64,000 nt of DNA. It comes from Escherichia coli (lineage in GTDB: Bacteria; Pseudomonadota; Gammaproteobacteria; Enterobacterales; Enterobacteriaceae). This document shows, piece by piece, positions 9,825 to 60,002 of the stretch. The DNA is taken from the NCBI RefSeq assembly GCF_044324875.1, contig NZ_CP172185.1; one strand, given 5' to 3'. A program made the position numbers and the translations under genes. The first letter of the stretch is position 1, and each line of letters begins with the position of its first letter. Under the pieces are notes generated by a model. It ran no database searches, was not told the origin of the DNA, and was given only the letters and a program-made list of their open reading frames with translations.

Positions 9825-10579
9825 TGAGTGATAACCTGTTAAACAAACTGACCCAACTGAAACTCCCGGCGATGGCCGGGAGCCTGATACGGCAGCGGGA
9901 AACGCCTCAGACCTACGACGAACTGTCGTTCGAGGAAAGGCTGACGCTGCTGGTTGATGACGAGCTTCTGAGCAGGGAAAACAGCCGTGTGGCACGGTTG
10001 AGAAAAAATGCCGGCCTGAAATACCAGGCAACACCGGAAGGGCTGCGCTATCCGGCCTCAAGAGGTCTGCGGGCTGAACAGATGAGAGAACTGCTGAACG
10101 GCCACTACATAACCCACAGGAAAAACCTGCTGATAACCGGTCCGACAGGATGTGGCAAGAGCTGGATAGCCAATGCGCTGGGCGAACAGGCATGTCGACA
10201 GAAACACAGCGTCCGGTACTGTAGAACCGGGCGATTACTGGAACAACTGGCTCAGGGACGTGTTGATGGCAGCTGGCTGAAATATCTGAAACAGTTGCAA
10301 AAAATACAGGTTCTAATCCTGGACGATCTGGGGCTGGAACAGTTAAGTAACGCCCAGTGTAATGACCTTCTGGAGCTCATAGAGGATCGTTACGGACAAA
10401 GCAGCACGATAGTGGTAAGCCAGTTCCCGGTAGATAAATGGCATGGTCTGATGGAGAACCCAACAACAGCAGATGCCATCCTGGACAGACTGGTACATAA
10501 CTCACACCGAGTGGTCCTTCAGGGAGAGTCACTGAGGAAAAATCCCCCGGTAGTGGAAAGCAGCGAAAAAACGCGTTAA
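9825..10579 (+). CDS. istB: IS21-family ATP-binding helper IstB
   Basis: 251 aa from MSDNLLNKLTQLKLPAMAG...; Walker A GPTGCGKSW and Walker B ILDDLG; starts 15 bp after the istA stop. Confidence 0.88.
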
Positions 10580-10678
10580 AAAGCGGTAGAAAAAGTTAAG
10601 TTCCCGGTTGATCGAATGGATGCGAATCGCTGATCGGACTTCGATGCCAATCCGTGATCGAATAGAGCGGAATACGCA

Positions 10679-11249
10679 CGAAGCCAGTTTACGCCGTCTC
10701 AATACTGATTATCTCGATCTCTACTTATTACACTGGTCTGGCAGTTTCGCTCTCGAAGAGACTGTCGCAGCGATGGAAAAATTGATCGCCCAGGGCAAAA
10801 TCCGCCGCTGGGGCGTTTCTAACCTTGATTATGCCGATATGCAGGAACTCTGGCAGCTGCCGGGGGGGAATCAGTGTGCCACTAATCAGGTGCTTTACCA
10901 TCTCGGTTCACGAGGGATTGAGTACGATCTACTTCCCTGGTGCCAGAAACAGCAGATGCCGGTGATGGCTTACAGTCCGTTAGCTCAGGCCGGGCGGTTG
11001 CGCAATGGGCTGCTAAAAAACGCAGTAGTCAACGAAATTGCACATGCTCACAATATCAGCGCGGCACAAGTATTGTTAGCGTGGGTAATCAGCCATCAGG
11101 GTGTGATGGCGATTCCAAAAGCGGCCACGATTGCCCATGTCCAACAAAATGCGGCTGTGCTTGAGGTTGAATTTTCGTCAGCGGAATTAGCTATGCTGGA
11201 TAAGGCATATCCGGCACCAAAAGGAAAAACTGCGCTGGATATGGTGTGA
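10679..11249 (+). pseudogene. yeaE: yeaE 3' fragment (aldo-keto reductase C-terminal part)
   Basis: Frame resumes exactly at the target duplication with ASLRRLNTDYLDLYLLHW... through the YeaE C-terminus. Confidence 0.85.
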
Positions 11250-46458: not shown

Positions 46459-47343
46459 TCAGAACAGGTGATCCCACAGAGTGACCAGCAGGTGGATAAT
46501 GCGGTCCCGGGTTTTGCGCAGAAGCTGTAACATCCAGGCCGGAAAACTGAAACGGGCAACGGCGTCGTCAAAACTTTTCCCGATGGTTTCACCAAAAGTC
46601 TGTTGTGCGTGTTTCTGGACCCGTTCAGAGCGGTTTTCCCCCCGGATATGTGAATAAACCGCGCTGGTTGCCTGTGGCGGCAGTGCGTGGATCATCAGTG
46701 ACACCAGTGCCGGAATATTCCAGCCGACAGGCGCGGCAACGGGGAGTACCGGAAATGATGAAGGGAACAGGGTTGCCACCCGGGCTGTCACCGTCGCCAG
46801 CGAGAGTTCCTGGTGACGGGACGGGCATTTTTCTGTGTCGTTCCATTCTTCAGCAGGAAATACGCGATCGGCATGGCTGAGAACAAACAGAAAACGCGAG
46901 GGATCTGCACCTTCATTCAGTAAAAACTGATGCATGGCGATGTCGGCAGCATACGCACGTTCATCAGCCCGCAGGATCCAGATAATCAGATCCAGTTCGG
47001 GCAGTAACTGACTGTAAAGTGCCCGGTATTCCTGATCATGCTGTGGTGTTTCGCCAGTGCCGGGCAGATCGACCAGCGTCATTCTTCGTTCACCGGGCTG
47101 AAAGGTAAGACGATGAGCCTGACGGGTGCAGCCGTTCAGCGGATGCGTGGCGCAGACACGGGACTGAAAAATGGCATTGCACAGGCTGCTTTTTCCGGCA
47201 CCGGATTTACCCATAATGCCAATCACGGGCTCGTAATGAATAACACTGTGGAGATGTTCAAGGATTTTCTGGCGAATTTCTTCAGGAAGAAACGTCAGAT
47301 ATGATTTCACTTGTGCGGAGAGGGAAGAATGGCTGAATGACAT
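46459..47343 (-). CDS. YeeP/YfjP/YkfA-family GTPase
   Basis: 294-aa ORF with P-loop GIMGKSGAGKSS and G3 motif DLPGTG; typical lead gene of CP4-type island cassettes. Confidence 0.85.
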   Translation of the reverse strand: MSFSHSSLSAQVKSYLTFLPEEIRQKILEHLHSVIHYEPVIGIMGKSGAGKSSLCNAIFQSRVCATHPLNGCTRQAHRLTFQPGERRMTLVDLPGTGETPQHDQEYRALYSQLLPELDLIIWILRADERAYAADIAMHQFLLNEGADPSRFLFVLSHADRVFPAEEWNDTEKCPSRHQELSLATVTARVATLFPSSFPVLPVAAPVGWNIPALVSLMIHALPPQATSAVYSHIRGENRSERVQKHAQQTFGETIGKSFDDAVARFSFPAWMLQLLRKTRDRIIHLLVTLWDHLF

Positions 47344-47448
47344 ACCGGTATCCTGTTGATTTCACTGAACCGGATCACACTAATCCGGTTTATCATTCAG
47401 GTAATATGGGCGTGAAAAAATCTGGAGTGACAAAGTTCGGGAGGAGTG

Positions 47449-48399
47449 ATGGCATCACTGTCGATTAATACGCTACGCCGAATGAGCATTTGTAAAAGTC
47501 AGGCCTGGAAAGATACCCAGCGAATACTGAAGCGTAGTGGACTTGTGTACAGAGGGGAACGGTCAGAATCGTTTGATCCTGAGAAACATTTTAATCGTTA
47601 TACGGTGCGTTATCTGTACCTGCTTAACATAATTGCGCTTAAGATAAGGTCGGTTAGTAAATTTTCCTGTTGGATCGAGGTGGGACAATGCCATCGTATG
47701 ACTGGTAAACATTTATCTCTTAATGCCCCGCCTTTTATGCTGATTCCGCGTAGTATCCGGAGAAAAGTGGATGGATTCAGACAGTCAAAAGGTGAAGCAA
47801 CCCCAAAATCGGCTCAACCGTTCACGGGCAGTTTGTATGAGGTTTTGAGAAAGGAGAGCGATTCAGCTAAGCTGGACGCATGGATTGCTGAACTGCCTCT
47901 GAACTTGCAGGAGGAGGGAAAGGAAATCTCAGTCATGGGATTTAGTCCACGGGCTGTGGCCCGACCTGTTCTTCGGTCAGCATCCCCGACGTTTGAACTG
48001 TTTTATCAGGAGTATCAATCCCTAAGATTAAAATCTGTTTTTAAATTTGAACCAAGATTTGAACAACTTTTAACAAGACTGAGCTTTAGAAAACAATCAA
48101 TTCTCAGAAAACAACAATACAGGGTTAAATCGCAATTACTGGAGAGACTGGGGAATGTGTTGTTTTTCACGTCGCTTTATAACCAGGGATGTTTAGAGGA
48201 GTTTATAAATGCACTTGTGGAAAAGGAGGACATTTATCTGAAAATGTCCCCTGGGGAGGAAAAGGTGAAAGCACACCAGAAAATGGTTAACTACATTGAA
48301 GCGTTCTGCAACAAAATGACGGAAAAATACCTGATGCCCGCAGCAAGCAGACACTACAAAAAGAAGAAAATCGCCAGGAGCGAAAGTGGTGAAAGTTAA
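47449..48399 (+). CDS. Hypothetical protein (316 aa), low GC, unrecognised family
   Basis: Strong RBS GGGAGGAG 4 nt before ATG 47449; divergent from the GTPase gene; basic and coiled-coil-rich; no motif I can assign. Confidence 0.55.
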   Translation: MASLSINTLRRMSICKSQAWKDTQRILKRSGLVYRGERSESFDPEKHFNRYTVRYLYLLNIIALKIRSVSKFSCWIEVGQCHRMTGKHLSLNAPPFMLIPRSIRRKVDGFRQSKGEATPKSAQPFTGSLYEVLRKESDSAKLDAWIAELPLNLQEEGKEISVMGFSPRAVARPVLRSASPTFELFYQEYQSLRLKSVFKFEPRFEQLLTRLSFRKQSILRKQQYRVKSQLLERLGNVLFFTSLYNQGCLEEFINALVEKEDIYLKMSPGEEKVKAHQKMVNYIEAFCNKMTEKYLMPAASRHYKKKKIARSESGES

Positions 48400-49184
48400 T
48401 CCAGTCTACCGTACAGAATCAGTTGTTCCAGAATAGCCTGCTGTGTTGTTTTCCGCTCTCTGGTCAGTCTGTCCAGAGCGCTTTTTGCGGATGGCGATAT
48501 CTTTACGTTGATTTGTACCCGTTTATCTTTTTTTCCATCGATAAACTGTTTTCTGAATGCATTGTGCATCTTGTCGAAAAATCTTTCTTTTGCAGCGAAT
48601 CCTAGGTGAAATTCTTTTGGCGTCAGTAAACAGGGTGTGTCTGTGGGGAATAACATTTTTAGTAAAACTACAATGGCAATATATCTTTCGTTATCATTTA
48701 CAGGATTAAACCAGGAAAGATATGTGGGTGAGATACGTGCATCAATATATTCCCATGCCCATTTCAGTTGTTCGGTATTCTTTTTAAGCCATTTGGCTTC
48801 GTTTCTCTTTTCGAGTCCCAGCCAGTTTTGATGCATTATTGAGATAATCCGATCTGCTTCCCCATAAAGGATTAACGCATTAATCCATTTCCCTATAACA
48901 TTCAGTCGTGTTTCATGACTTGAAGGAATAATTGTCATGGGGTTATCCTTCATAACGATCACCCCCTTCAAGGCAGAGTTGAACTCAGATTCATTATTAA
49001 GTTTAAGTTTTTCGGGAACTGTATGAGACATAATTAACCAGAACCAGAATGCTGCAATTTCATTTTTTCTGATCCATTCAGGTATGTGATTATCTGCCAG
49101 ATTATTATCATTCAATAAATGCTCAGTTGTTTTATTTTTCCAGTCATATCTATTCACGTTATAACCGCCTTTATATTGTTTCAT
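48396..49184 (-). CDS. Hypothetical protein (about 262 aa), low GC, C-terminal ribbon-helix-helix-like segment
   Basis: ATG 49184 with RBS GAGG 8 nt upstream (the track ORF starts 29 codons earlier); stop overlaps the convergent gene stop by 4 nt; C-terminus KISPSAKSALDRLTRERKTTQQAILEQLI resembles RHH DNA-binding folds. Confidence 0.5.
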   Translation of the reverse strand: MKQYKGGYNVNRYDWKNKTTEHLLNDNNLADNHIPEWIRKNEIAAFWFWLIMSHTVPEKLKLNNESEFNSALKGVIVMKDNPMTIIPSSHETRLNVIGKWINALILYGEADRIISIMHQNWLGLEKRNEAKWLKKNTEQLKWAWEYIDARISPTYLSWFNPVNDNERYIAIVVLLKMLFPTDTPCLLTPKEFHLGFAAKERFFDKMHNAFRKQFIDGKKDKRVQINVKISPSAKSALDRLTRERKTTQQAILEQLILYGRLD

Positions 49185-49804
49185 CTGATTACGCCTCAAT
49201 CGTTTTCTTTTCTGGTGATTTTCACCATCACATGTCAGTTGTATATGCAAGGGGATCAATAAAAATATCACCCTGCAAGCACTTCAAAGCTGATTATGGG
49301 GATATTCTAGAACTATTCACAAAACTATTCCAGACATATCAAGAACTATTTCTTGACCTATTCATAATAAAATAAAACATGCTATCAACTACGGCTCATA
49401 TTCTCCTTGGGGGTGTCGTTGTACTGTTCGACTGTTCTTGTGGTCAGATTAACAATCTGAAGAGTAAAAGCGACAGTAATCTGTCTGTTATAGTGGCGAT
49501 AAAAACACTGAATGCGCATCCTGTATGTGAAATCCTGTCATGTAGAGCAGTAAGCAATGACAGACATGCATGTTATATGTGAAGGGGGCCGGGAGACGAC
49601 ATAATCAGTATGGCTGTCATTCTGGTTGTAAAACGCGATCACTTTCCGGGGGTAAAAGATGATATGGAGGTTGACAAACGGTTTGCTTCGGATTGTCTTT
49701 TCTGGGGCCTGAAATACGAGGGCAGAAAAATAATTCCAGAGTAAATCTGCTCTGTTTTTAGGACAGAAAACTCCATGCTGGCTGTAAAAGTGAAAAATTA
49801 ACAC

Positions 49805-50881
49805 CCAGTATGTATGGAAGTCTGAAGATGTTGAGAATGTCGGTATGATACTATATACACATATTTTACTAAGTATTTTTACTAAGCATTTCAGTAAGTG
49901 TTATACACGTATTTTCTACTAAGTGTTTTACCAGACATACACGTGTTTTCATAAACAGCCCTATAAGTGTTTTCATTAAGCATTGCTGTACACATTGCTT
50001 TGTCTGAAACACATCCAGTTTAGTAAATCTTTACGTTAGCTAAAATCAGTTTAAAGCTGCTGTAAAACCTTTCTGTTTAAGCAATCAATCTGCTATTCGA
50101 TTTTACTGATGTTGCGTTTAACCTTTTCTGAGATTTCGAGTTTCGACGTTAGCATGAGAAAAGTATCTTTACGCTAAATCAACCCGAACTTTCCTGAAGT
50201 AATCTGACGTTTTTTTCGATGTGCTTACGACGATTCTGTTAAACGACTTTCTGGATGTTTTGATAACAATCAGATTGAGGCATTAACGATTCCTGACGTT
50301 TTCTTTTCCGTGTAAGGTCATTCTTTTTGTCATGAGGTTTCTTCTTGCATTGCGAAAGTGTGATGAACGGTTTTGGTGTTTTTGATTCAGATAAGGTTTA
50401 CGTTATCGATGGTTAATCGTTTTTATGGTGCGTAGTGAAACGTAACTTTTTCAGGATGAGAAAATCGATTCTGATGTTGGTGATTTTTGTTCTTGTGGCG
50501 GGGTTTATCTGTAAACAGGTTTTAAACGTGTCATTCACATCCGTGATTGAGTTGTGTGATTAAGCTGTAGGTTTTGGGGTTGTTGTTGATTTGCATTACC
50601 AGGAAGCGTTCTGGTTGCGTTTCTGGTGTTTTGTTCGAATGTTCTGTGGATCCTTTTCCCTTCTGACTTTTCTCGTTGTCCATGTCGTTTTTAAATCCAT
50701 TCGCTGTTCTTGAGTGTTTTTACCCTGCGTGTAGAATTATCTTTTCGTTCCGGGATGGTTTGTTCCGTTTCAATCACTCTTAATCAGAGAGTTGTAGCAT
50801 TGCTCAATGCCGGATGCCGTAAAGTTTTACCGCGGTGATTAATGATGTGAAGTCAATCCAAATCAACGGAGATCTCTCATC
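49805..50881. other. ORF-free, T-rich (plus strand) 1.08-kb non-coding region with repeated short motifs, upstream of the first gpII-like gene
   Basis: No ORF of 60 aa or more in any frame; strong T over A and G over C skew on the plus strand; repeated TAAGTGTTTT-like and TTTTCG/GTTT units. Confidence 0.5.
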
Positions 50882-51613
50882 ATGAATCAACCAATACATA
50901 ATGCTTACTGGTTATCCCGTTTTGACAGCCTTCTCGACAGTGCCCTGGCGCAGCACCGTGCCGTCTCGTTAATCCGGGTGGATTTACGTTTCCCTGAGTA
51001 TATGCCTGTCACCATCATGGATCCCGATCCGGATTCAGCGGTGATTTCTCGTTTTTTTGCATCCCTGAAAGCCAAAATTCAGGCTTACCAGCGGAAAAAA
51101 AGATGTGCCAATCAGCGTGTGCATGCAACCAGCCTGCGTTATTTCTGGTGCCGGGAGTTCGGCAAGGAAAAAGGCAGGAAACATTATCACGTGATATTAC
51201 TGCTCAACAAAGATACCTGGTGCTCGCCAGGGGATTTCACCGTTCCTTCTTCGCTGGCGACACTGATCAAGCTGGCATGGTGTAGCGCTCTGCATCTTGA
51301 GCCCTGGCAGGGTAATGGACTGGTTCATTTTTCCAGGCGGACGCCTTTCCGTAAACCGGCATCATCTGATGCTCGCCCTTCTTCCGATGATACGCCTTTG
51401 TCGGGTGGATGTTCTGATACCAGGAAGGCTTCAGAAAAAAAGCCGGGTGAAGCCGCTGTTCTCTGGATCAAGCGTGGTGATGTGGAAGCGCTGCAGAAAG
51501 CCCGGAACAGAGCCAGTTATCTCGTGAAATATGAGACGAAGCAGCATGACGGTTCCGGGCAACGTAATTATGGTTGCAGTCGTGGGCCGGGGCGTCTGCT
51601 GGATGGCAGGTGA
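50882..51613 (+). CDS. Inovirus gpII-like (YagK/YfjJ-family) protein, putative HUH-type replication initiator
   Basis: 243-aa ORF with HYHVILLL (His-hydrophobic-His) motif; family typical of P4/CP4-like islands. Confidence 0.65.
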   Translation: MNQPIHNAYWLSRFDSLLDSALAQHRAVSLIRVDLRFPEYMPVTIMDPDPDSAVISRFFASLKAKIQAYQRKKRCANQRVHATSLRYFWCREFGKEKGRKHYHVILLLNKDTWCSPGDFTVPSSLATLIKLAWCSALHLEPWQGNGLVHFSRRTPFRKPASSDARPSSDDTPLSGGCSDTRKASEKKPGEAAVLWIKRGDVEALQKARNRASYLVKYETKQHDGSGQRNYGCSRGPGRLLDGR

Positions 51614-51939
51614 GCCCTGTAAAACGACATCCGGTGCCTGAGCTTATGCTACAGGACGTTGGCTGACGCCCTTAGCTCGTTTTCTGAAAAAGTCGTCCTG
51701 AAGTCATGCAACGGTATTTTTCTCTGCTTTCGCTCCTGGAAACACTCCGTCGGTAAAACCTTACTGTCCTGCTTAATGATGTGAACCGAAGTCAACGGAG
51801 ATCATTCATTCTGAACCTGCATCCGGTGTTCTGTCCCTTGTCGGTTACCTGATCTTCCCGTTCTGCCGCGGTTTTTCACTTATTCCATCAACCCCATACG
51901 CAAGCCATAACACGTCAGCGCATCCACGGGCAGGACGCG

Positions 51940-52542
51940 TTGTGGGCTGCGTATAACGGAACATATCTTATGAATGCTATCCCTTATTTCGACTATAGCA
52001 TGGCGCCCTTCTGGCCATCTTATCAGAACAAAATCATCGGCGTTCTCAACCGTGTGTTGCGCGAGCAGTCCTGCTCCCGAATACGGCGGATCCTGCTTCG
52101 TCTGCCGGGGGAACATGGCAACATCTTCAGCGACAGAAAAACCTGGTTCGGTATGGCCTTTATCGAAACCGTCAGTGCGCTGATGAATGCAACCCCCGGA
52201 CGCGACCTCTGCTGGCTCCTGACCCGTCATCCTGAAAAACCGGAATACCACGTGGTGCTGTGCGTCAGACAGGAATATTTCGACGGCCCTGAGCTGGACC
52301 GGTTGATTCTGGATGCCTGGAGCAACGTACTGGGCTTCGCGTCACCGGGTGAAGCAGCACCGTACCAGAAACAGATAACCCGGGATGTGGTGCTGGACAG
52401 TTGTTCACCGGACTGCGAAGAGAGACTCAAAGAGCTGATATGGGCGTTCAGTGATTTCGCCCGCGATCGTCGTGGTGTGCGCGATCCGGAAGCCCGTTAC
52501 CTCGCCGGTAATCCCTGGTATCCCGTAGCAGGCCAGCTCTGA
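51940..52542 (+). CDS. Inovirus gpII-like (YagK/YfjJ-family) paralog
   Basis: 200-aa ORF with EYHVVLCV motif and a similar upstream sequence motif to the 50882 gene. Confidence 0.6.
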   Translation: MWAAYNGTYLMNAIPYFDYSMAPFWPSYQNKIIGVLNRVLREQSCSRIRRILLRLPGEHGNIFSDRKTWFGMAFIETVSALMNATPGRDLCWLLTRHPEKPEYHVVLCVRQEYFDGPELDRLILDAWSNVLGFASPGEAAPYQKQITRDVVLDSCSPDCEERLKELIWAFSDFARDRRGVRDPEARYLAGNPWYPVAGQL

Positions 52543-52610
52543 AAGCTCAGCTCAGCAGATTCACCCGCATTTGCCCAACATTCATAAATCTCACAGAGGA
52601 CATTCTGACC

Positions 52611-52847
52611 ATGTTGACCTCAATGACAGGTCACGACAGCGTATTGCTGCGTGCCGACGATCCCCTGATCGACATGAACTACATCACCAGCTTCACTGGT
52701 ATGACCGACAAATGGTTTTACAAGCTGATCAGTGAAGGCCATTTCCCTAAACCCATCAAACTGGGGCGCAGCAGCCGCTGGTACAAAAGTGAAGTGGAGC
52801 AGTGGATGCAGCAACGAATCGAGGCATCACGAGGGGCAGCAGCATGA
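52611..52847 (+). CDS. alpA: AlpA-family prophage transcriptional regulator (P4-type)
   Basis: 78-aa ORF with MerR-like HTH (ITSFTGMTDKWFYKLISEGHFPKPIKLGRSSRWYKSEVEQWM). Confidence 0.8.
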   Translation: MLTSMTGHDSVLLRADDPLIDMNYITSFTGMTDKWFYKLISEGHFPKPIKLGRSSRWYKSEVEQWMQQRIEASRGAAA

Positions 52848-53596
52848 AACGTGTTGTAATGCCGGTACGCTGGCAATGTGCAAAATACCAGCGTTGGTAT
52901 TGTGGAAATCAGCCCTGTCCCTGGTGCTGGCGACCTGCTGCCCCCGTCTGTCATTCCTCGTTCTTCGCTGTAACAGGCATCGTACCGGTCTCGGCGTGCT
53001 TTCCTGCGTACCGACACCGGTTCAGCAACATTCAAGGGGATCAAATCGTGCAAATAACCGAAACCGTACTTTCAGAGCCGGTGGAAATCCGGCGTTTTAT
53101 TCAGCAGGCGGTGGATCACTGGCCGCGTCTGCTGGCCGTCCACTTCACACTCCATTCGGCAGAAGGAAACATCAACGGACAACAGATTCATGCATTCTGT
53201 ACTTCCTTTTACCGACAGGTGCACGAGCGTATTACTGAACGTAATCACACGGCCAGTCCAGCACCACCGGTGGTATTACGCTGGTTGCGGGAACAACATG
53301 GAGGAGCAACAATGCGATGCCTGTTGCTGCTCAGCCAGACGAGCATTTGCCATCCACGGGTCAGTGCCACGGTTGATGAAGAATGTTCGCAACGGGTGGA
53401 TTTATTGCAACAGACATGGCGGGTGATAAGTGCTGACGGACAATGCCGGGTGGAAAGGTGTTTTCAGGCTGCCCGGGGTGATACATCCGGCCAGTATATT
53501 GCGTTAAAAACAGTTGCATTGTCTCTGGGGTTACCGGTTGTGACCGGTATTACCCATCGCCCGGTACAGCGCTGTACATTGATTACAGCTCAGTGA
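52844..53596 (+). CDS. Hypothetical protein (250 aa), translationally coupled to alpA; possibly a third gpII-like paralog
   Basis: ATGA overlap with the alpA stop; contains AVHFTLHS in a context resembling the other two paralogs; Cys/Trp-rich N-terminus. Confidence 0.45.
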   Translation: MKRVVMPVRWQCAKYQRWYCGNQPCPWCWRPAAPVCHSSFFAVTGIVPVSACFPAYRHRFSNIQGDQIVQITETVLSEPVEIRRFIQQAVDHWPRLLAVHFTLHSAEGNINGQQIHAFCTSFYRQVHERITERNHTASPAPPVVLRWLREQHGGATMRCLLLLSQTSICHPRVSATVDEECSQRVDLLQQTWRVISADGQCRVERCFQAARGDTSGQYIALKTVALSLGLPVVTGITHRPVQRCTLITAQ

Positions 53597-58788: not shown

Positions 58789-59115
58789 ATGACTAAAAAT
58801 ACTCGTTTTTCCCCCGAAGTCCGTCAGAGGGCGATTCGTATGGTTCTGGAAAGTCAGGGCGAATATGACTCACAGTGGGCGGCAATTTGTTCCATTGCCC
58901 CAAAGATTGGCTGTACACCGGAGACTCTGCGTGTCTGGGTACGCCAGCATGAGCGGGATACCGGAGGCGGTGATGGCGGGCTCACCACCGCTGAACGTCA
59001 GCGTCTGAAAGAGCTGGAACGTGAAAATCGTGAACTGCGCCGCAGTAACGATATCCTTCGCCAGGCTTCCGCTTATTTTGCGAAGGCGGAGTTCGACCGC
59101 CTCTGGAAAAAGTGA
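58789..59115 (+). CDS. IS629 transposase OrfA
   Basis: 108-aa [63 protein letters not shown]... matching IS629 OrfA. Confidence 0.9.
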
Positions 59116-60002
59116 TGCCACTGCTGGATAAGCTGCGTAAGCTGTACGGGGTCGGACCGGTATGCAGTGAACTACATATTGCCCCGTCAACGTATTACCA
59201 CTGTCAGCAACAGCGACATCATCCTGATAAACGCAGTGCCCGTGCGCAGCGCGATGACTGGCTGAAGAAAGAGATACTGCGCGTATACGATGGGAATCAT
59301 CAGGTATACGGTGTGCGTAAAGTCTGGCGTCAGTTGTTACGGGAAGGAATCAGGGTAGCCAGATGTACAGTGGCGCGCCTCATGGCGGTTATGGGACTTG
59401 CCGGTGTTCTCCGGGGTAAAAAGGTCCGCACTACCGTCAGCCGGAAAGCCGTTGCCGCAGGCGACCGCGTAAACCGTCAGTTTGTGGCAGAACGTCCTGA
59501 CCAGTTGTGGGTGGCTGATTTTACTTACGTCAGCACATGGCAGGGGGTCGTCTATGTGGCGTTCATCATTGATGTGTTTGCCGGATACATCGTGGGGTGG
59601 CGGGTCTCATCGTCTATGGAAACGACATTCGTGCTGGATGCTCTGGAGCAGGCGTTATGGGCCCGTCGACCGTCCGGCACAGTCCATCACAGTGATAAAG
59701 GTTCTCAGTATGTATCGCTGGCCTACACACAGCGGCTTAAGGAAGCCGGATTACTGGCATCAACAGGAAGTACTGGTGACTCGTATGACAACGCGATGGC
59801 GGAGAGCATCAATGGCCTTTACAAAGCGGAGGTAATACACCGTAAGAGCTGGAAAAACCGGACAGAAGTGGAGCTGGCCACACTCACGTGGGTGGACTGG
59901 TATAACAATCGACGATTGCTGGAAAGGCTGGGCCATATCCCACCGGCAGAAGCAGAAAAAGCTTATTATGCTTCCATCGGAAACGATGATCTGGCAGCCT
60001 GA
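59112..60002 (+). CDS. IS629 transposase OrfB (DDE integrase core)
   Basis: 296-aa ORF overlapping orfA by 4 nt; motifs [16 protein letters not shown] and [15 protein letters not shown]. Confidence 0.9.

Follow-up and report, generated by a model that had tools for sequence, protein, structure and literature searches.

A conserved non-coding unit with two family-wide boxes upstream of a YagK/YfjJ-type HUH gene in Escherichia coli genomic islands: a candidate cis-acting control region

In a 64-kb stretch of Escherichia coli DNA (hereafter the window, to which all positions refer), we analyzed the segment 49805-50881, which lies directly upstream of a yagJ-type gene of the YagK/YfjJ ('inovirus Gp2') family (50882-51613, plus strand) encoding a predicted HUH nickase of 243 amino acids. 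The segment is part of a real, widespread and conserved non-coding unit, which is neither an RNA gene nor a recognisable pseudogene, and which carries at its left end two short boxes that are found family-wide and appear to be undescribed in the searchable literature. The reading that we favour, and to which we give roughly an even chance, is that the unit controls the yagJ-type gene in cis from upstream and forms part of the backbone of widespread E. coli islands. About a third of the complete genomes of this species contain such islands, often several of them, and the islands carry virulence (here aerobactin) and defence cargo. YagK and YfjJ are uncharacterised products of K-12 y-genes, and the boxes described here supply them with a concrete partner in cis, from E. 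coli to Morganellaceae and contigs of IMG/VR.

The window matches the chromosome of E. coli SCU-115 (NZ_CP054368.1) at 100% identity. The locus is a genomic island with CP4-like backbone genes on the minus strand at its left side, and its RefSeq annotation is empty at 49185-50881 (1,697 nt), the longest gap of the 41-kb locus. The original prediction, made from the sequence, that no open reading frame (ORF) of 60 amino acids or more would be found over more than 1 kb was borne out, the ORFs that overlap 49805-50881 reaching 50 amino acids at most. Within the final 1,160 nt, the longest run without a stop codon spans 62 codons, as compared to a 5-95% range of 58-116 codons in composition-matched shuffles; thus, stop codons are no denser than in random sequence and the stretch is simply non-coding.

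The bias of the plus strand toward T and G, also part of that prediction, is equally clear, with T at 38% and A at 25% (A 0.247, C 0.166, G 0.206, T 0.382). Over 49805-50881 the AT skew is -0.25 and the GC skew +0.11, with local peaks of -0.47 and +0.39, respectively. This AT skew is equalled in 12 of the 630 one-kb intervals of the window, seven of which lie here and five at one locus (34.6-35.1 kb), the ynjC/ynjD ABC-transporter coding region. The G+C content is 32-42% over 49850-50900 (37% overall) versus 50-57% in the flanking island genes.

Of 5,426 complete E. coli genomes, 1,877 carry the stretch, which occurs 3,289 times in all (median 2, maximum 8 per genome). Nearly all copies are chromosomal, four E. 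coli plasmids also carry the stretch, and no sequence similarity to it was found in phage records. In all 18 annotated loci it directly abuts a gene of the Gp2 family, and its opposite flank holds at least three unrelated gene cassettes among the same loci. The left edge of homology is sharp, at approximately 49713-49730, in all alleles, including those in which the protein is only 64-76% identical. The conserved unit therefore spans approximately 49730-50881, and the 545 nt further left (49185-49729) lie outside it, being allele-specific and unalignable (nucleotide diversity, pi, of 0.40-0.50, with many gaps).

We aligned 54 distinct full-length alleles, taken from genomes and from 80 gut-metagenome loci. 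The unit measures 1,053-1,212 nt in 51 of them, and the other three carry a 253-nt deletion. Identity among alleles is 90-98% for the Gp2 gene and 61-93% for the upstream DNA. The original prediction had set conservation across islands against decay of a former coding sequence, and the alignment divides the two: presence, length and composition of the unit are kept, whereas most of its sequence drifts neutrally. Neutral drift is here combined with a maintained length and skew.

Two boxes and a repeat array

Box 1 (ATAATTCCAGAGTAA, 49730-49744, plus strand; family consensus TAAYTNNAGAGTAA) is the conserved element farthest from the gene and coincides with the homology boundary of the unit. A shared 7-mer, TCCAGAG, led to a 13-mer, ATAAYTCCAGAGT, which is located upstream and on the strand of the gene in every lineage compared (position 49730 in the window); among k-mers common to all intergenic regions of the family, k = 8-9 gave nothing above chance. 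We tested the box with the regular expression TAA[CT]T..[AG]GAGT at 31 family loci, 22 of which are IMG/VR loci at 29-38% identity. The coding strand of the 1.5-kb upstream regions contained 23 matches, as compared to one on the minus strand of the same regions and none downstream on either strand, in controls of approximately 46 kb each. Among E. coli alleles, variation in box 1 is confined to the N and Y positions of the family consensus.

A consensus scan also placed a terminator-like hairpin (CAGAG-TAAATCTG-CTCTG plus a T-run) at 49737-49759 of the plus strand, with its 5' arm inside box 1. Other E. coli alleles retain the T-run but not the 3' arm (arms at 49737-49754), and the hairpin is therefore probably not the functional feature. 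A search for local inverted repeats in 49700-50900 of the window allele found none.

Box 2 (GTCGGTATGATACTATATAC, 49839-49858, plus strand; consensus GTYGG-W-TA-K-R-TAWTATATA) follows box 1 at a distance of 55-131 nt in almost every lineage, and of approximately 95 nt in the window. The mean mismatch to its consensus is 3.7 versus 6.6 in shuffles, and the block is almost invariant among E. coli alleles. It is included in a promoter-like element (49831-49859, plus strand) that consists of TTGAGA (49831-49836), a spacer of 15 or 17 nt and TATATA or TATACA; in a position-weight-matrix scan, TTGAGA-17-TATACA was recovered in 31 of the 54 alleles. In yagK, box 2 reads TTTAGA-16-TATAAT. The intergenic region of yfjJ measures 152 nt and must contain the promoter of that gene; box 2 lies within it, 73 nt ahead of the start codon, a promoter-like placement. 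Lineages differ in how far box 2 is from the start codon (73 to 1,040 nt), indicating that the DNA between them is a leader or spacer that tolerates changes in length.

Box 2 is AT-rich, and it is palindromic in some lineages only (GGTAATATATA-TTG-TATATATTACC at locus L149 and GGTATAT-GTA-ATATACC at locus L165). Its resemblance to the nonanucleotide of circular Rep-encoding single-stranded (CRESS) DNA viruses, TAATATTAC, which occurs exactly once, at locus L145, is an unproven lead. A reverse test, in which IMG/VR was searched with CAGAGT-N40-70-GGTAWTATAT, returned 80 loci with the gene at one of them, the pattern being too loose for the result to be informative.

The 243-residue type of protein was found in E. 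coli only, and its next relatives are 35-50% identical; a protein scan of genome contigs yielded just two loci. In Providencia, Morganellaceae, Brenneria, Jinshanibacter, and Logan and ENA contigs, the same divergent layout is kept, with a GTPase/antirestriction/DUF932 operon pointing leftward, Gp2 and then AlpA pointing rightward, a gap of 0.4-1.4 kb between them, and changing cargo. Upstream of K-12 yfjJ in CP4-57 (TTAATTTAAGAGT ... TGATAGGTAATATATA) and K-12 yagK in CP4-6 (CTAATTGCAGAGT ... GGATAGGTATTATATA), both boxes recur with their order and orientation unchanged. These two loci differ from the window in that box 1 is only 128 and 261 nt, respectively, from the ATG, and in that they carry neither the repeat array nor the T-rich spacer described below. 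K-12 yagJ itself is the orthologue of the 243-residue gene, as judged by length and position. In CP4-6 (locus L021, 4635-5500), a copy of the insertion sequence (IS) IS1C lies approximately 100 bp upstream of yagJ, and the whole control region has been lost.

A direct-repeat array (49852-49990, plus strand) begins at the end of box 2 and covers approximately 140 of the 1,077 nt of the segment. Its units are heterogeneous, being of two types, ATACAC(R)T(R)TTT and (N)AYTAAG(Y)(R)TT, with a spacing of 12-50 nt. Tandem Repeats Finder reported 5.2 copies of period 13 at 49864-49929, and four of the five matches to TAAGYRTTT in the window fall at 49870-49972. The reiterated motifs of the original prediction are thus real as far as this array is concerned, but the TTTTCG and GTTTT blocks that it also listed are not above the expectation from dinucleotide composition. 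The iteron-like character that it proposed is likewise seen, in that direct repeats are present and their copy number varies between alleles. Indeed, the 54 sequences contain 42 distinct alleles of the array, 119-238 nt long, and both unit types persist in the most diverged one.

Similar arrays follow box 2 in Providencia (locus L138) and Jinshanibacter (locus L141; five copies of 36 nt, with internal palindromes). In total, tandem arrays occur in 5 of 21 lineage intervals versus 2 of 21 controls, three of them being strong, and most other lineages have no array. Repeats of ACACATTTTA in Brenneria look like the ATACACATATTTT units of E. coli, which is also an unproven lead. An iteron-type theta origin was considered and rejected, because the units are heterogeneous, no DnaA box was found in 49185-50881, and the neighbouring protein is an HUH nuclease rather than a winged-helix Rep.

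Candidate control region or possible rolling-circle origin

The HUH assignment of the gene, which had been anticipated, is well founded. The 243-residue protein matches Pfam YagK_YfjJ_C (2e-34) and REP_ORF2-G2P (2e-8) and has an HUH fold, with the H-Y-H motif (residues 101-103) and Tyr213 kept in relatives down to 33% identity. The gene that adjoins the non-coding unit thus encodes an HUH protein in which both the HUH motif and the catalytic Tyr are intact, as a rolling-circle origin would need in its cognate initiator. Our search for functional literature on yagJ, yagK, yfjJ and PF11726 found nothing.

In the reading that we favour, functional content would sit at the two ends of the unit. 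At the left end, box 2, which overlaps sigma-70-like -35 and -10 elements, would be the promoter of the gene with an embedded operator, and boxes 1 and 2 together with the array would make up the promoter/operator of a yagJ-alpA module. The array would probably be bound by a protein of the module, either the HUH protein itself or a regulator, that sets promoter output. At the right end lies a conserved gene-proximal block of 80 nt (50801-50881, plus strand), with 93-98% identity among the 18 annotated alleles. It contains an inverted TTTACG pair, CGTAAAG-TTTTACC (50818-50831, approximately 50-65 nt before the start codon), which may act as a second operator-like dyad, and a Shine-Dalgarno sequence, GGAG (50868-50871, plus strand), as ribosome-binding site. 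Diversity falls from 0.24 to 0.08 at 50800; we note that the last 31 nt were fixed by the search anchor and are uninformative in this respect.

The approximately 800 nt between the two ends, which are AT-rich, unstructured and length-tolerant, would have no sequence-specific function and would most likely be a 5' leader transcribed from the box-2 promoter. A leader or spacer is supported by the insert-type alleles described below, which tolerate a 1.2-kb replacement within the stretch. Judged by composition alone (37% G+C), the middle stretch is also probably a target of H-NS-type silencing, its G+C content being well under the host average over several hundred bp. If it holds, the promoter/operator reading would make the unit a piece of ordinary regulatory anatomy.

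Several observations weigh against this control-region reading. The promoter assignments are matches to consensus sequences. A generic promoter scan gave two promoter-like sites versus 5.4 in shuffles, and the candidate box-2 promoter was not among its calls; moreover, TTGAGA-17-TATACA has a weak -10 element and reaches the score cut-off in only the 31 alleles mentioned above. The spacing of 55-131 nt between the boxes shows no fixed helical phase, which is unusual for a classical activator site. The excess of T over A and of G over C is kept in all 54 alleles despite erosion, and the length stays within 1,053-1,212 nt in 51 of them despite 93 insertions and deletions (indels), and a plain leader or spacer gives no reason for either. 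The insert-type alleles, in addition, place a convergent gene within the supposed leader, and in K-12 IS1C lies close to yagJ; a gene-proximal promoter may therefore exist, and none was found.

Alternatively, boxes 1 and 2 could constitute a rolling-circle-type origin or the nick site of YagJ, with the repeats as lineage-specific binding sites, a possibility that we regard as tentative and that is compatible with a promoter role. The T-rich DNA would then serve as an AT-rich auxiliary segment or as a spacer. Because the protein has an HUH fold in which the HYH and Tyr motifs are intact, it must have a specific DNA target. The boxes, which persist across family members with only 29-50% protein identity and keep a strict orientation relative to the gene, behave as a nick sequence would. 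The AT-rich box 2 with its palindromes at L149 and L165, the position of box 1 at the outer edge of the conserved module, and the arrays that follow box 2 in E. coli, Providencia and Jinshanibacter, which differ in sequence as do the proteins, all point in the same direction. However, the small number of lineage intervals with arrays, the lack of a conserved hairpin at box 1 among E. coli alleles and of local inverted repeats in the window allele, and the lack of a DnaA box argue against an origin. There is likewise no evidence of island replication after excision and no literature on the activity of the family, and transcription is the simpler explanation for where box 2 lies and for its promoter-like content. 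The boxes thus fit a promoter/operator at least as well as an origin.

A further step, that the boxes and the array are the target of YagK/YfjJ and that the islands, or the module to the right of box 1, replicate or mobilise by rolling circle after excision, appears doubtful. A nick site at the boxes would bear on island maintenance and cargo exchange. Rolling-circle mobilisation would offer a mechanism for cargo exchange at a hot spot of defence and virulence genes, where cargo changes right after Gp2-AlpA, and would provide a first function for K-12 yagJ, yagK and yfjJ.

The T-rich spacer

The T/G-rich spacer or untranslated leader extends over 49991-50800 of the plus strand, with pi values of 0.03-0.25 and a mean of approximately 0.12. 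The mean pairwise difference of the upstream DNA is 0.164 versus 0.095 at the four-fold degenerate sites of the gene, and divergence among alleles is several-fold above that typical of E. coli core genes. Patches of low diversity are found at 49841-49860, 50021-50060, 50101-50120 and 50401-50440, several of them at pi 0.03-0.07. The heptamer CTTTACG occurs three times versus 0.14 expected (P = 5e-4), at conserved, directly repeated TTTACG sites (50029-50035, 50167-50173 and 50396-50402, plus strand). A second promoter-like site, TTTAGT-16-TAAAAT (50019-50046, plus strand), is a consensus match only, present in 30 of the 54 alleles with a mean score of 9.2, and falls within a low-diversity patch (pi of approximately 0.07); a weak terminator-like site lies at 50602-50634 of the same strand.

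The AT skew is -0.26 to -0.32 in 54 of 54 alleles. Low-frequency substitutions show no strand bias (C>T 0.35 per C, G>A 0.38 per G); their net flux erodes the skew, which must hence be inherited or selected and is not the product of current mutation. Ongoing strand-biased mutation was rejected as its source on the same figures. The four-fold sites of the gene also show more T than A, a comparison that is confounded by codon usage. Curved DNA was likewise rejected, as the T-tracts are without helical phasing of 10-11 bp. The T-rich stretch of approximately 800 nt has no counterpart in other lineages, and its skew is common to the Providencia interval only.

Indels amount to 93 events scattered throughout, 16 of which are multiples of three. 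In insert-type alleles (L007 4568-5897, L018 4078-5407, L019 and L134 2592-3789, including E. coli IAI39), positions 50397-50728 (332 nt) are swapped for approximately 1.2 kb with a 176-amino-acid ORF on the minus strand, for which no family match was found (best PHROG 323, E 0.003). A minus-strand transcript of 50260-50500 would be A/C-rich, with more C than G, and nearly unstructured, with a minimum free energy (MFE) of -9 to -13 kcal/mol per 160 nt. Such an A/C-rich, C-over-G, unstructured RNA has the composition typical of Rho loading sites, and the region might hold back antisense transcription as a one-way barrier.

We consider it unlikely that the T-rich bulk (approximately 50000-50800) is a functionless relic, perhaps a decayed gene, trapped between functional ends. 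T-rich sense strands are typical of membrane-protein genes, and the only other place in the window with an equal T skew is the ynjC/ynjD coding region. Drift at or above the rate of four-fold sites, the low share of indels that are multiples of three, the absence of a structure signal, and a skew that is ancestral and eroded by low-frequency substitutions would all be consistent with a relic. So would the 253 nt missing in three alleles, the 332 nt replaced in insert-type alleles, and the fact that other lineages of the family do with 73-400 nt. On the other hand, the length stays within approximately 7% in 51 of the 54 alleles, which is unexpected for junk under bacterial deletion bias, and the patches at pi 0.03-0.07, well below neutral diversity, and the conserved TTTACG sites also argue against it.

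Tests for a coding origin were uniformly negative. No long or intact ORF is conserved in the 54 distinct alleles plus variants, the aligned alleles show no period-3 signal, six-frame translations gave nothing below E 0.05 against PHROGs, and PGAP made no pseudogene call over the region in 18 RefSeq loci. A pseudogene was consequently rejected, given the lack of an ORF in any allele, of a protein remnant and of residual periodicity, together with indels that are blind to frame.

The long structured leader or non-coding RNA of the original prediction did not hold up in any of three approaches, and a structured RNA was rejected as a candidate. In the Rfam covariance scan that had been proposed, 47000-53000 gave no match at E <= 1, and at the gathering score the whole window gave none except the ALIL pseudoknot, an IS3-family frameshift signal well above that score, which lies away from the region (59070-59186, plus strand). 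Sliding MFE z-scores range from -2.7 to +1.8 and are mostly close to 0 on both strands, and RNAalifold consensus folding of 28 diverse alleles gave -1 to -13 kcal/mol per 150 nt, with z close to 0 versus column shuffles. A long structured non-coding RNA or riboswitch-like leader on either strand is thus highly improbable, although the stretch is long, ORF-free, conserved in place and strand-asymmetric, since these scans are negative, indels occur throughout and a minus-strand RNA would be almost free of structure.

The surrounding module and known systems

To the left of the unit, the minus-strand backbone comprises DUF4942, a CbtA/YeeU toxin-antitoxin pair, RadC-like JAB, antirestriction, DUF932 and GTPase genes, and a hypothetical gene (48396-49184, minus strand) is the left neighbour of the annotation gap. 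The interval between the GTPase gene and box 1 holds at least three unrelated cassettes (window 47446-49184; L009 879-2009, L014 819-2042, L010 732-1586). A 262-residue minus-strand protein of the window has a weak C-terminal match to ribbon-helix-helix/RepB-RCR_reg (E 0.14-0.32), and another record gives the name 'replication regulatory RepB family protein' to a homologue of it with 26% identity.

To the right, the plus strand carries the inovirus Gp2 family gene (50882-51613), a hypothetical gene, an AlpA/excisionase-like helix-turn-helix (HTH) gene, IS debris and the aerobactin operon. Proteins of the yagJ type contain a Ser/Pro/Asp-rich low-complexity insert of approximately 35 residues (residues ~154-190; window 51341-51450), with a predicted local distance difference test (pLDDT) score below 50, which is absent from all other YagK/YfjJ members. 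A PhotoRC-I match inside the Gp2 coding sequence (51305-51372, plus strand), at 24 bits versus a gathering score of 45, is probably due to chance.

The AlpA-like gene (52611-52847, plus strand) carries an HTH/AlpA annotation and has a weak TIGR01764 match. Its product is 68-69% identical to the AlpA encoded after Gp2 homologues in Brenneria and a Logan contig, where Gp2 itself is approximately 42% identical. The gene is flanked by two hypothetical genes (51970-52542 and 53048-53596), whose N-termini loosely resemble by eye that of YagK/YfjJ, and these could be very diverged YagK/YfjJ paralogues; their matches to Pfam YagK/YfjJ were not significant (E 0.46 and none). The neighbouring hypothetical proteins gave no significant match in NCBIfam, PADLOC or PHROG.

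The DNA right after Gp2-AlpA is a cargo hot spot in several genera, with locus-specific content that is often related to anti-phage defence. The DNA downstream of Gp2, with or without AlpA, corresponds to 51614 onward in the window, and its content at other loci includes a restriction endonuclease (L005, L008 and L015), ireA (L004), NACHT (L139), and TIR, Cap4 nuclease and type I restriction-modification genes (L141 and L142). A motif scan also surfaced a tandem run of the 8-mer ATAGTGCC in K-12 CP4-57 (L020, ~10427-10467, minus strand), at or just 3' of yfjM (10514-10777) and upstream of rnlA, which is unrelated to the yagJ control region.

The unit is reminiscent of several known systems. 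The intergenic region of gene II in Ff phages is also a long non-coding stretch (~500 nt in Ff) with a T-rich plus strand, upstream of a gpII-type HUH gene. It differs in its strong hairpins (the packaging signal and the minus and plus origins), of which there are none here, and the unit shows no similarity to phage records and has no virion genes nearby. H-NS-silenced AT-rich regulatory regions of enterobacteria share with it a low G+C content over approximately 1 kb upstream of a regulatory operon (here Gp2 and AlpA), and a low sequence constraint with composition and length kept. The strand asymmetry, with more T than A and more G than C, is not a property of H-NS targets, and the T-tracts are unphased.

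The layout of iterons plus nonanucleotide at the origins of CRESS-DNA viruses resembles the boxes and array when these are read as an origin. The comparison with the double-strand origin and rep promoter of the pMV158 family of rolling-circle plasmids (nic, the 'bind' repeats and the copG-repB promoter) has its own differences: the element described here is chromosomal, in islands of the P4-integrase type, is ten times longer with its 800-nt T-rich spacer, has no conserved hairpin with a putative nick site, and lacks the repeats in most lineages. Nevertheless, both regions are non-coding and lie directly upstream of an HUH initiator gene, and both combine a short sequence conserved across the family with lineage-specific direct repeats approximately 100 nt away.

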